64,000 bases of DNA from Escherichia coli (GTDB taxonomy: Bacteria; Pseudomonadota; Gammaproteobacteria; Enterobacterales; Enterobacteriaceae): the NCBI RefSeq assembly GCF_022846255.1, contig NZ_AP025682.1, one strand, 5' to 3'. The notes under the pieces were generated by a model. The model saw only the letters and a list, made by a program, of their open reading frames with translations. It searched no databases and was not told the origin of the DNA. How positions within the stretch are numbered: position 1 is the stretch's first letter; each line of letters opens with the position of its first letter. Shown here piece after piece: positions 43,301 to 47,124 of the stretch. Made by a program: the position numbers and the translations under genes.

Positions 43301-44249
43301 GGCGTAAGTTCAGCTTGTTCAGCGCATCGGCGGTATCGCGAATTTCTCGCTCGCCGCTCATAAAAATCAGAATGTCGCCAGGGCTTTCCTGGCTCAGTTC
43401 ATCTACGGCATCGAAAATCGCCTGCAACTGGTCGCGCTCGGTGTCATCAGCTTCTTCAACAATCGGGCGATAGCGCACTTCCACCGGATAGGTCCGACCG
43501 GAGACTTCGATAATCGGCGCATTATTAAAGTGGCGCGAAAAGCGTTCCGGGTCGATAGTCGCGGAGGTGATAATAATTTTTAGGTCAGGACGCCGCGGCA
43601 GCAACTCTTTCAAATAGCCGAGGAGAAAATCGATATTCAGGCTGCGTTCGTGCGCTTCGTCAATAATGATGGTGTCGTACTGCATCAGCAGGCGGTCTTG
43701 CTGGATCTCTGCCAGCAGGATGCCGTCGGTCATCAGCTTGACCATCGTGTTATCACTGACGTGATCGCTGAAACGCACTTTGTAACCGATGCAACCGCCC
43801 GGCTCCGTTTTCAGCTCTTCCGCAATACGGTTCGCCACCGTTCTTGCCGCCAGGCGACGCGGCTGGGTATGGCCGATCAGCCCTTTAATCCCGCGCCCCA
43901 GCTCCATACAGATTTTCGGTAGCTGAGTCGTTTTACCGGAACCCGTTTCCCCGGCGACGATCACCACCTGGTGGTCACGAATCGCTTCGAGAATGTCCTG
44001 CTTTTTCTGACTAACCGGCAAATTGTCCGGGTAAGTAATCTCCGGTCGTGCCGCTTCACGCAGCAGGACTTTCCCTGCCGCATGGTCAATCTCTTTCGCC
44101 ATCTCCTGGAAAATGGCTTGTTGTGCATCAGGATTTTTAACCTTCTTCACACCGTGCAGACGGCGTAAAAAACGCTGTCTGTCGCGCAGCATCAGCGAAT
44201 CCAGCCGCTGCTGCAAGTCAGCAAAGGTCAATTTTTGTTGTTCTGTCAT
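40347..44249 (-). CDS. hrpA: ATP-dependent RNA helicase HrpA (DEAH-box), 1300 aa
   Basis: ORF track; Walker A GETGSGKTTQ, DEAH box. Confidence 0.95.
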   Translation of the reverse strand: MTEQQKLTFADLQQRLDSLMLRDRQRFLRRLHGVKKVKNPDAQQAIFQEMAKEIDHAAGKVLLREAARPEITYPDNLPVSQKKQDILEAIRDHQVVIVAGETGSGKTTQLPKICMELGRGIKGLIGHTQPRRLAARTVANRIAEELKTEPGGCIGYKVRFSDHVSDNTMVKLMTDGILLAEIQQDRLLMQYDTIIIDEAHERSLNIDFLLGYLKELLPRRPDLKIIITSATIDPERFSRHFNNAPIIEVSGRTYPVEVRYRPIVEEADDTERDQLQAIFDAVDELSQESPGDILIFMSGEREIRDTADALNKLNLRHTEILPLYARLSNSEQNRVFQSHSGRRIVLATNVAETSLTVPGIKYVIDPGTARISRYSYRTKVQRLPIEPISQASANQRKGRCGRVSEGICIRLYSEDDFLSRPEFTDPEILRTNLASVILQMTALGLGDIAAFPFVEAPDKRNIQDGVRLLEELGAITTDEQASAYKLTPLGRQLSQLPVDPRLARMVLEAQKHGCVREAMIITSALSIQDPRERPMDKQQASDEKHRRFHDKESDFLAFVNLWNYLGEQQKALSSNAFRRLCRTDYLNYLRVREWQDIYTQLRQVVKELGIPVNSEPADYREIHIALLTGLLSHIGMKDADKQEYTGARNARFSIFPGSGLFKKPPKWVMVAELVETSRLWGRIAARIDPEWVEPVAQHLIKRTYSEPHWERAQGAVMATEKVTVYGLPIVAARKVNYSQIDPALCRELFIRHALVEGDWQTRHAFFRENLKLRAEVEELEHKSRRRDILVDDETLFEFYDQRISHDVISARHFDSWWKKVSRETPDLLNFEKSMLIKEGAEKISKLDYPNFWHQGNLKLRLSYQFEPGADADGVTVHIPLPLLNQVEESGFEWQIPGLRRELIIALIKSLPKPVRRNFVPAPNYAEAFLGRVTPLELPLLDSLERELRRMTGVTVDREDWHWDQVPDHLKITFRVVDDKNKKLKEGRSLQDLKDALKGKVQETLSAVADDGIEQSGLHIWSFGQLPESYEQKRGNYKVKAWPALVDERDSVAIKLFDNPLEQKQAMWNGLRRLLLLNIPSPIKYLHEKLPNKAKLGLYFNPYGKVLELIDDCISCGVDQLIDANGGPVWTEEGFAALHEKVRAELNDTVVDIAKQVEQILTAVFNINKRLKGRVDMTMALGLSDIKAQMGGLVYRGFVTGNGFKRLGDTLRYLQAIEKRLEKLAIDPHRDRAQMLKVENVQQAWQQWINKLPPARREDEDVKEVRWMIEELRVSYFAQQLGTPYPISDKRILQAMEQISG

Positions 44250-44440
44250 AACGTTAGTGGGCAGTAGGCTGCCTGATTAATTTTCTTTTAAATGATAGAT
44301 ATAGAGTACCACATCGCGGCTTTCTATGCGTTGTTCAATAAATTCGAACATAGGCTTCGATTTATTGCGCTATCTCTGTGGCAGGATTGTGAATAAAGTG
44401 TCAACAAGCAACGGGGCATTGCCCATTCAAATATCTATAA

Positions 44441-45055
<615 letters not shown>

Positions 45056-45066
45056 GATTTATGATG

Positions 45067-45093
45067 CCTCCCACGAAAGTGGGAGGTTTTTTT
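45067..45093 (+). terminator. rho-independent terminator of azoR
   Basis: CCTCCCAC-GAAA-GTGGGAGG hairpin followed by TTTTTTT, 12 nt after the azoR stop. Confidence 0.65.
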
Positions 45094-45095
45094 AT

Positions 45096-45962
45096 TTAAC
45101 CCGCCTTTTGCGCAATACTGTCCAGCGTTGCCAGCACGTCATCCGTTAGCACTAATTCATCGGACGCCATATTCTCCCGCAGATGCCCCACCGAAGAGGT
45201 GCCAGGAATCAACAAAATATTCGGTGAACGTTGTAACAGCCACGCCAGCGCCACCTGCATTGGTGTTGCACCCAGGCTCGTAGCAACATCGGAAAGCGTG
45301 GAGGATTGCAGCGGCGTAAAGCCCCCGAGCGGGAAGAACGGCACGTAGGCAATGCCATCACGAGCCAAAGCATCAATCATTGCGTCATCAGCACGGTGGG
45401 CAATGTTGTATTCGTTCTGCACGCAGACGATTTCGGCAATCTTTCGCGCCTCTGCAACCTGCGTCGGTGTGACGTTACTCAGGCCAATATGTTTTACCAG
45501 GCCTTGTTGTTGCATCTCCGCCAGCACTGTCAGGCTGGCCTCAATCGATCCTTCCGCTGGGCCATGACCATCCCCCATCATAACGCGCAGGTTAACCACA
45601 TCCAGTACGTCCAGGCCGAGATTACGTAGATTATCGTGTACCGCTTTTTGCAGCTCTGCCGGAGAAAATGCGGGTAACCAGGAAGCGTCCTCTCCACGCC
45701 GCGCACCAATTTTAGTGACAATTGTCAGGTCGTCAGAGTAAGGATAAAGCGCTTCGCGGATAATCTGATTGGTGACGTGCGGACCATAAAAGTCGCTGGT
45801 ATCAATATGATTGACGCCCAATGCCAGCGCCTCGCGCAGCACGGTTATAGCGACGTGGCGATCTCTTGGGGGGCCAAAAACCCCAGAACCAGCCAGTTGC
45901 ATCGCGCCATAACCAAGACGGTTAACGGATTTTGTACCGAGAGTAAATGTGTTGCTGCTCAT
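45096..45962 (-). CDS. ydbC: putative NAD(P)-dependent oxidoreductase YdbC (aldo-keto reductase family), 288 aa
   Basis: ORF track; AKR-family sequence. Confidence 0.85.
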   Translation of the reverse strand: MSSNTFTLGTKSVNRLGYGAMQLAGSGVFGPPRDRHVAITVLREALALGVNHIDTSDFYGPHVTNQIIREALYPYSDDLTIVTKIGARRGEDASWLPAFSPAELQKAVHDNLRNLGLDVLDVVNLRVMMGDGHGPAEGSIEASLTVLAEMQQQGLVKHIGLSNVTPTQVAEARKIAEIVCVQNEYNIAHRADDAMIDALARDGIAYVPFFPLGGFTPLQSSTLSDVATSLGATPMQVALAWLLQRSPNILLIPGTSSVGHLRENMASDELVLTDDVLATLDSIAQKAG

Positions 45963-46087
45963 CGCACCCTGCCCTGTAATAAAACGGATTAAGAAAAATC
46001 AGTATAGGAATGAATAGAGATAAATAATGCGAGGGTGTAAACAAGATTACTGGATGAGTAGCTCTAATATCCTGAAAGACACCAAAA

Positions 46088-46149
46088 CAAGACGCGTCAA
46101 GTACCGCATCCGGCAATAAAAAACCGCAACCTGTATCAGCGTTGCGGTT
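46088..46149. repeat. REP-like palindromic unit plus hairpin with T-run (likely paaY terminator on the minus strand)
   Basis: GACGCGTCAAGTACCGCATCCGGCA REP-like motif; AACCGCAAC...GTTGCGGTT hairpin followed on the minus strand by TTTTTTATT. Confidence 0.5.
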
Positions 46150-46162
46150 AAGGTATCACATG

Positions 46163-46783
46163 CTAAAAATTAGAACGTTCAGCATCTGGACGTGACTGTT
46201 TCGGTCGCAGATTCTCATCAAATACCAGACGCTGCCTGCCAGGTTCAACTTCCCGCAATGGCTCGACTTGATGCAACGTCTGCTTACAACGTGTCACCAG
46301 CACCTGATACTCATGCGTGCCCTGCTTTTTCCATGCCAGCTCCTGCTCACTAAGTTCACGAATCGCTTTTGCCGGGCTGCTGACAATCAGATAATTAGCA
46401 GGCATTTCTGCTTTGGCTTTCACAAATGCGGATGCGCCAACAATACTGTTCTCACCAATCACCGCACCGTCCATCACTACCGCGTTCATTCCCACTAACG
46501 CATTGCGGCGGATAATGCAGCCGTGAAGGATAGCGCTATGACCAATATGCCCATCTTCTTCAACGACAGTATCCTGCCCGGGAAAGCCGGGCATAACGCA
46601 ATTATCCTGAATGTTCGCGCCATCTTTCACCACGATACGACTAAAATCACCTCGCAGGCTGGCATTTGGTCCAACGTAAACGCCCTTGCCGAGAATAACA
46701 TCGCCGATCAATACCGCTGTCGGATGAACAAAACTCTCTTCTGTTACAATCGGAGTCAGACCGTCTATCTGATAAATTGGCAT
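46163..46783 (-). CDS. paaY: hexapeptide-repeat thioesterase / gamma-carbonic-anhydrase-like protein, PaaY-type (206 aa)
   Basis: ORF track; [11 protein letters not shown]... with left-handed beta-helix repeats; GGAGG RBS; the rest of the paa operon is absent from this window. Confidence 0.75.
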
Positions 46784-46818
46784 AACACCTCCTGTTCAAT
46801 ATTCAAACCGCCAAAACG

Positions 46819-47124
46819 TTGAAAATACAGGCTACCCGGCGAAGGCTGCTCACCGACCGAGGTTTCACCTTTTTCACTAACGAACGCTACAGCAGCAGGC
46901 GCTACGCGCTGATAAAATTTGCCGATAAAGGTTTGGTGGTCGCGCAATATATTCGTAACCGTCGTCTCGATTTTTGTGCAGATGCGATTCGCCATGCCGC
47001 AGATGATGAAAAACTGGCAGGCATTGGCTTTCATTGGGGATTTTCCGACCAGAGTCATTTTTCAACGGTATTTAAACAACGCTTTGGGATGACGCCAGGC
47101 GAGAATCGGCGTAAATTCCGCTAA
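46819..47124 (+). pseudogene. feaR: AraC-family regulator, C-terminal HTH fragment (likely feaR remnant)
   Basis: 101-codon ORF ending in an AraC-type second HTH (GFHWGFSDQSHFSTVFKQRFGMTPGENRRKF); no N-terminal domain; adjacent to ydbL as feaR is in K-12. Confidence 0.5.

Follow-up and report, generated by a model that had tools for sequence, protein, structure and literature searches.

The genomic region of Escherichia coli K-12 that carries azoR and pdxI is the closest described counterpart of the locus reported here. In strain MG1655, the genes are arranged in the order ydbA (a pseudogene), pdxI, ydbD, ynbA, ynbB, ynbC, ynbD, azoR, and hrpA, and the stop codons of pdxI and azoR are separated by 7,173 bp that comprise five genes. 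The enzymatic role of PdxI, formerly known as YdbC, was described by Ito and Downs (2020; as cited in PMC9997740). A second point of reference is provided by studies on transcription termination between convergent genes. The bidirectional terminators found between convergent E. coli gene pairs are often unlike intrinsic terminators; they act through head-on and trailing collisions of RNA polymerases, and the collision-driven termination of convergent genes requires a stem-loop, which fixes the site of the collision (bioRxiv 10.1101/2022.10.23.513370).

We analyzed a stretch of 64,000 nucleotides of an E. coli genome (assembly GCF_022846255.1, contig NZ_AP025682.1), which is referred to as the window throughout, and in which azoR and pdxI are direct neighbors. 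In a literature search on ynbABCD, ydbD, ydbC, and pdxI in connection with phylogroup B2, we found no paper that discusses a polymorphism of the azoR-pdxI interval.

Architecture of the azoR-pdxI junction

The junction is formed by two protein-coding genes and the spacer between them.

44450-45055, plus strand: azoR, FMN-dependent NADH azoreductase, 201 amino acids (from the list of open reading frames; stop codon TAA at 45053-45055)
45056-45095, no strand: spacer of 40 bp between the two stop codons (from the list of open reading frames and the sequence)
45096-45962, minus strand: pdxI (formerly ydbC), aldo-keto reductase/pyridoxal reductase, 288 amino acids (from the list of open reading frames; NF007695)

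The two genes are convergent, and their stop codons bound a spacer of exactly 40 bp, the distance that had been given in the original prediction for azoR and ydbC. As in K-12, hrpA is located upstream of azoR. AzoR shares 99% amino acid identity with its K-12 counterpart (96.0% at the DNA level); because its scores against the NCBIfam azoreductase models fall below the cut-off (111 bits versus 188), its assignment is based on this identity. PdxI scored 552 bits against NCBIfam model NF007695 (cut-off 280) and is 94% identical, over 286 amino acids, to the 286-residue PdxI protein of K-12, with a DNA identity of 93%. An Rfam scan of positions 44200-46200 at E ≤ 1 returned zero matches, and the spacer is hence devoid of a known RNA family. 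Among the matches listed, PdxI proteins from Myxococcota, Rhizobiales, Burkholderiales, and other groups (L008-L082) share 72-80% amino acid identity with that of E. coli, values that are unusually flat across phyla. Again among the matches listed, the occurrence of pdxI within the Enterobacteriaceae is patchy, and the E. coli and E. albertii alleles are about 80% identical at the DNA level.

A BLASTN comparison of the window with K-12 showed that homology breaks off precisely with the azoR stop codon (45055) and is regained at about position 45110, inside pdxI. Neither ydbD nor any of the ynbABCD genes was found anywhere in the window; ydbA is missing as well, and paaY is located beyond pdxI. 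The K-12 locus (b1406-b1412) resembles that of the window in possessing hrpA, azoR, and pdxI as flanking genes in the same orientation. It differs in encoding a 286-amino-acid PdxI protein with another C-terminus, in the terminator of pdxI itself (a GGGAAA/TTTCCC stem with a long T-tract), and in the hairpin that follows azoR: K-12-type chromosomes carry at this site, in place of the hairpin found in the window, one with an 11-bp stem and no T-tract. The K-12 arrangement on which the original prediction had drawn, with ydbD and ynbABCD between the two genes and ydbA beyond ydbC, agrees with the MG1655 gene order, and K-12 with its 7,173 bp does not share the 40-bp spacing.

Predicted transcription termination between azoR and pdxI

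The spacer contains a single hairpin, which is followed by a T-tract in the direction of azoR transcription.

45066-45087, plus strand: predicted terminator hairpin, GCCTCCCAC, loop GAAA, GTGGGAGGT (fold and terminator scan)
45087-45097, plus strand: T-tract TTTTTTTATTT of the predicted azoR terminator (sequence read directly; terminator scan)

The stem of this hairpin starts 11 nt past the azoR stop codon. Its arms (45066-45074 and 45079-45087) form nine base pairs, six of which are G-C pairs, and enclose the GAAA loop. On the plus strand, the hairpin folds with -18.7 kcal/mol (z = -3.5), a value that was attained by none of 200 shuffled sequences, and a local scan of 2.5 kb ranked it first among terminator-like sites. 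A G+C-rich stem-loop, a U-tract right after the stem, and a conserved orthologous position are all present on the azoR strand, where the hairpin thus bears the full stem and U-tract signature of intrinsic terminators. The stop codon of pdxI, the complement of positions 45096-45098, lies inside this T-tract. We also compared the stem across four distinct sequences and found one double change from an A-U to a G-C pair, an outcome that 90 of 500 shuffles matched equally well.

The minus strand, which is that of pdxI, can still fold into an 8-bp stem (centroid -15.6 kcal/mol, z = -2.4). This stem is followed by CAUCAUAA and not by a U-tract, the plus strand being devoid of an A-tract upstream of the hairpin. 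When the hairpin was assessed as a bidirectional terminator, the sequence following the stem was read as CAUCAUAAAUCU, which does not represent a U-tract, and the terminator scan reported no minus-strand terminator at the azoR-pdxI spacer. Judged from these features, it is only in the azoR direction that the hairpin qualifies as a canonical intrinsic terminator. The claim that the two genes share one terminator hairpin therefore stands insofar as a single hairpin is located between both genes, and must be narrowed insofar as the terminator signature is confined to the azoR strand. The word shared describes the geometry of the site; a bidirectional role that includes pdxI is plausible. With its one stem-loop between converging genes, the site resembles the bidirectional terminators of Ju et al. 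(2019), as these are presented in bioRxiv 10.1101/2022.10.23.513370. It differs from bidirectional intrinsic terminators in its lack of a U-tract on the pdxI strand.

We infer that transcripts of azoR would be released by ordinary intrinsic termination at about positions 45094-45097, i.e., in the T-tract near the pdxI stop codon. The pdxI gene of the window appears to lack a terminator of its own, and transcripts of pdxI would enter the azoR hairpin from the far side, with no U-tract beyond it. They might be halted weakly at this point, or through the combination of a hairpin and polymerase collision that is known from convergent gene pairs.

A natural variant of this site is present in E. coli O127:H6 strain E2348/69. 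Its locus resembles that of the window in possessing the feaR'/'paaX scar (see below), paaY, pdxI, and azoR, with 98.9% identity over 8 kb, and differs in that an ISEc13 element of about 1,550 bp has inserted into the loop of the hairpin (L083, 2083-3632). The insertion is flanked by a 10-bp target duplication, CACGAAAGTG, which corresponds to positions 45072-45081 of the window, and it splits the sole terminator between azoR and pdxI. E2348/69 is thereby a natural mutant in which the use of a single hairpin by two converging genes could be studied.

Distribution of the junction among E. coli genomes

A survey of the azoR-ydbC interval across genomes had been proposed with the original prediction, and we carried it out on 5,426 complete E. 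coli genomes. azoR and pdxI are contiguous in 788 of them. The junction found in the window, scored as a match that covers 80% or more of a 160-bp probe, occurs in 642 genomes (about 12%, or about one in eight), several ST131 genomes among them. A different junction, first seen in strain FFFEB2 and named after it here, is present in about 143 genomes (match of at least 99%); together the two kinds amount to 785, which nearly equals the 788 genomes with contiguous genes. The K-12 ydbD-ynbD segment was found to an extent of at least 80% in 3,755 genomes and without any trace in 655, while roughly 870 genomes possess it in part, most of these being without ydbD and keeping a remnant of its 5' end. 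The ydbD-ynbABCD block thus shows the variable presence among strains that is expected of an island. Since the junction of the window recurs in 642 independent complete genomes, a misassembly or other artefact was ruled out.

Both genes are annotated as intact in three genomes that we compared individually. The junction of STEC299 (NZ_CP022279.1) and of strain 1105 (NZ_CP023388.1) is identical to that of the window, and that of an ST131 genome (NZ_CP103465.1) is one T shorter. All three differ from the window in what follows pdxI: a large ydbA/BigA autotransporter gene, whereas the window has paaY. Over the 24 kb from 20000 to 44000 of the window, the best identity to any of the 5,426 complete genomes is only 97.9%; by this measure, the lineage of the window is without a close complete relative in RefSeq.

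These data identify the junction as an ordinary presence/absence polymorphism of the accessory genome, already visible in hundreds of annotated RefSeq genomes. In any alignment of the pangenome, ydbD-ynbABCD would show up as accessory, and in this respect the junction has little import beyond bookkeeping. The four distinguishable states of the site (full block, ydbD-less, the junction of the window, and FFFEB2) could act as lineage markers.

Comparison with a second azoR-pdxI junction

The FFFEB2 junction (L085, 3607-3719) has a spacer of 113 bp, which consists of the K-12-type hairpin that follows azoR, about 70 nt of the 3' end of ynbD, and the K-12-type end of pdxI, joined at a TCG microhomology. 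By its composition, this junction is the product of a genuine loss of the K-12 block by deletion, and an independent second azoR-pdxI adjacency.

The 40-bp spacer of the window could be regarded in the same manner, as the scar left when a K-12-type chromosome recently lost ydbD-ynbABCD in a simple deletion; the K-12-type arrangement is, after all, the majority form, and the approximately 143 genomes of the FFFEB2 type demonstrate that such events occur at this site. We consider this origin highly improbable. The spacer of the window contains no K-12-derived sequence, its hairpin is missing from K-12 and present in Citrobacter rodentium and Pseudocitrobacter, the adjoining 3' end of pdxI is just 70% identical to that of K-12, and a genuine scar, namely that of FFFEB2, is recognizably different. 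The designation of the azoR-ydbC interval as a compact arrangement was thus correct in that the K-12 block is absent, with the caveat that the word compact should not be taken to mean that the K-12 form was shortened by deletion.

Mosaic pdxI and the conserved azoR hairpin

The divergence between the window and K-12 extends from the spacer into the end of the pdxI coding region.

45096-45202, minus strand: mosaic 3' end of pdxI, second allele class, with the protein ending in ...LDSIAQKAG (from segment identities)

When pdxI of the window was compared with that of K-12 in successive segments, the identities were 97.0, 97.5, 94.5, and 93.8%, and then 70.5% in the last segment of about 95 nt (coding nucleotides 761-855). 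In this last segment, the sequence of the window is closest to that of Pseudocitrobacter (85.3%), and the sequence of K-12 is closest to that of E. albertii (82.1%). The encoded proteins fall into two classes accordingly: a 288-amino-acid class ending in ...SIA(Q/K)(K/N)AG in the window, Escherichia sp. L003, and Pseudocitrobacter, and a 286-amino-acid class ending in ...GISRE in K-12 and E. albertii. From stop codon to stop codon, the junction can be aligned throughout between the window, the ST131 genome, STEC299, strain 1105, L003, and Pseudocitrobacter faecalis. Although L003 is labelled E. coli, its hrpA gene is only 92% identical to those of the window and of K-12, and we have treated it as a non-coli Escherichia.

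The azoR genes of Escherichia sp. L003, Pseudocitrobacter, and C. rodentium are followed by the same hairpin at the same position, and its recurrence at this position in other genera argues that it is more than a chance structure. In C. rodentium, the same CCTCCCGC/GCGGGAGG stem lies 8 nt past the azoR stop codon, and the stop codon of a convergent gene comes directly after it, as in the window; a related stem is present in C. portucalensis, and other genes lie beyond. The C. rodentium flank differs from the window in that the convergent gene is not pdxI but an open reading frame of the GFA family, which is followed by the ynb cluster, and in that its T-tract is degenerate. Because the stem follows azoR both in C. 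rodentium, with other neighbors, and in Pseudocitrobacter, the hairpin is by this comparison azoR's own putative terminator and older than the genus Escherichia.

Taking these data together, we regard the 40 bp, with a probability of roughly 0.8, as the island-free haplotype of a strain-variable pdxI/azoR site, which carries the ancestral terminator of azoR and is related to the K-12 type by recombinational replacement. The K-12 type would represent a second, equally deep haplotype that comprises ydbD-ynbABCD, another pdxI 3' end with a T-tract terminator of its own, and the hairpin after azoR that lacks a T-tract. We infer that the two haplotypes have been swapped by homologous recombination, with breakpoints at the azoR stop codon and within pdxI (at about 45200-45230); neither a clean insertion nor a clean deletion would suffice to relate them to each other. 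Seen in this light, the junction would be a clear case in which what looks like a deletion is an older haplotype, one of whose genes has a mosaic end. Beyond the listing of an accessory block, the analysis makes modest additions: the spacer appears to be the ancestral terminator of azoR, the compact form probably did not arise from the K-12 form by deletion, and a separate, independent type of deletion exists.

An extension of this reading, which we consider rather unlikely, holds that both forms are an old trans-species polymorphism of haplotypes (Pseudocitrobacter and non-coli Escherichia versus E. albertii) that selection has kept in E. coli, with the loss of the ynb genes having been reached twice independently, in the type of the window and in the FFFEB2 type. 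If this were true, loss of the ynb lipid-gene cluster would be adaptive for lineages like those of ST131 and E2348/69.

Polarity of the change and relatives of the ynb cluster

The base composition of the K-12 block is uneven. The G+C content amounts to 43.5% for ydbD, 46.5% for ynbA, and 43.6% for ynbB, to about 51% for ynbC and ynbD, and to 52-53% for the flanks. No mobility gene (integrase or transposase) is annotated in the block, and our inspection of its borders for direct or inverted repeats yielded a longest common word of 6 nt, against a mean of 6.7 nt in shuffled sequences, and hence no sign of site-specific insertion. In C. rodentium, C. portucalensis, and Salmonella bongori, the genes are arranged as ydbH-ynbE-ydbL-ynbA-ynbB-(acyltransferase)-ynbC-ynbD-(134-aa ORF)-azoR-hrpA, without pdxI. 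Among the matches listed, pdxI and azoR are convergent neighbors in Pseudocitrobacter, a Kluyvera species, and Enterobacter sp. ENT03. These pdxI loci of outgroups represent the matches listed, a sample outside which E. fergusonii, E. marmotae, the E. coli type strain, and most other relatives lie.

Two histories, both compatible with the preferred reading of a recombinational replacement, assign opposite polarities to it. The compact haplotype may have arisen by an ancient loss. The ancestor of Escherichia would have possessed ynbAB..CD, the ancestral terminator, and azoR in the manner of Citrobacter, with pdxI inserted upstream; an old deletion from the pdxI stop codon to just before the terminator would then have created the compact haplotype, which was maintained in Escherichia and Pseudocitrobacter or was passed on among them by homologous recombination. 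Such a past fits the finding that the ynb cluster adjoins azoR in the nearest genera (C. rodentium, C. portucalensis, and S. bongori), where its G+C content is native-like and matches that of the flanks, and that the ancestral terminator and the ynb genes coexist in C. rodentium. It also fits the order of pdxI followed by ydbD in E. albertii and the retention of ynb genes by about 85% of the E. coli genomes. Loss alone, however, does not explain the diverged 3' end of pdxI, and it leaves the low G+C content of ydbD, ynbA, and ynbB in E. coli unaccounted for, as it does the lack, in the E. coli cluster, of the acyltransferase and the 134-amino-acid open reading frame of the Citrobacter and Salmonella clusters.

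The same low G+C content and the mosaic structure of pdxI speak for the opposite view, in which the compact form would be the original state of E. coli, an empty site into which ydbD-ynbABCD was imported later, together with a foreign pdxI 3' end, in the lineage of most phylogroups. The loss of azoR's ancestral terminator from K-12-type genomes points in this direction, as does the occurrence of the compact form in non-coli Escherichia and Pseudocitrobacter and of the pdxI-azoR adjacency in Kluyvera and Enterobacter sp. ENT03. The ynb cluster is, moreover, mobile, being found in Vibrio fluvialis in another genomic context, and a later import is also favored by the close YnbC homologue of Snodgrassella and by the lack of the acyltransferase and the small open reading frame in the E. 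coli cluster. An ancestrally empty site is at odds with the ynb genes of Citrobacter and S. bongori, which adjoin azoR; the island, moreover, is annotated without an integrase, and its borders show no repeats beyond chance. The adjacency outside Escherichia is also sporadic, since other pdxI loci of Enterobacter and those of Serratia are not near azoR among the matches listed. We hold the two histories to be about equally likely, each falling somewhat short of an even chance.

Several features of the ynb genes and of the azoR-pdxI interval in other bacteria were noted in the course of this analysis. The ynb cluster of Citrobacter and S. bongori (L088, L089, L090) is located directly between ydbL and azoR, and it contains an extra acyltransferase gene (PF01553) between ynbB and ynbC and an open reading frame of about 134 amino acids past ynbD. 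That of V. fluvialis (L092) is shorter, has no acyltransferase gene, and is positioned near the atp operon. Snodgrassella encodes a close homologue of YnbC. The YnbC relatives with 80-92% identity (P0005, P0006, P0007) are E. coli variants with the K-12-type junction or are located on short contigs. In Enterobacter sp. ENT03 (L007, 10850-11190), the spacer between pdxI and azoR is made up of about five tandem palindromic REP-like units of about 57 bp, TATTTATGCCCGGCGGCGCT(A/G)CGCTTGCACGGGCC...

Neighboring K-12 segments absent from the window

The window lacks further segments of the K-12 chromosome in the vicinity of the junction. At positions 46180-46191, there are 12 bp where K-12 has 8.9 kb consisting of ynbG and the ydbA pseudogene, which is disrupted by an IS element. 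Other strains of the compact type carry an intact ydbA/BigA autotransporter gene of 5.5-8 kb at this site. Farther downstream (46768-47121), the last 68 codons of feaR and the last 49 codons of paaX are joined tail-to-tail at position 46917. At this scar, which is also present in E2348/69, 17.75 kb of the K-12 sequence are missing (the 5' part of feaR, feaB, tynA, paaZ, paaA-K, and the 5' part of paaX), and paaY is orphaned. With the azoR-pdxI site included, the ydbL-azoR interval of the window is about 34 kb shorter than that of K-12.
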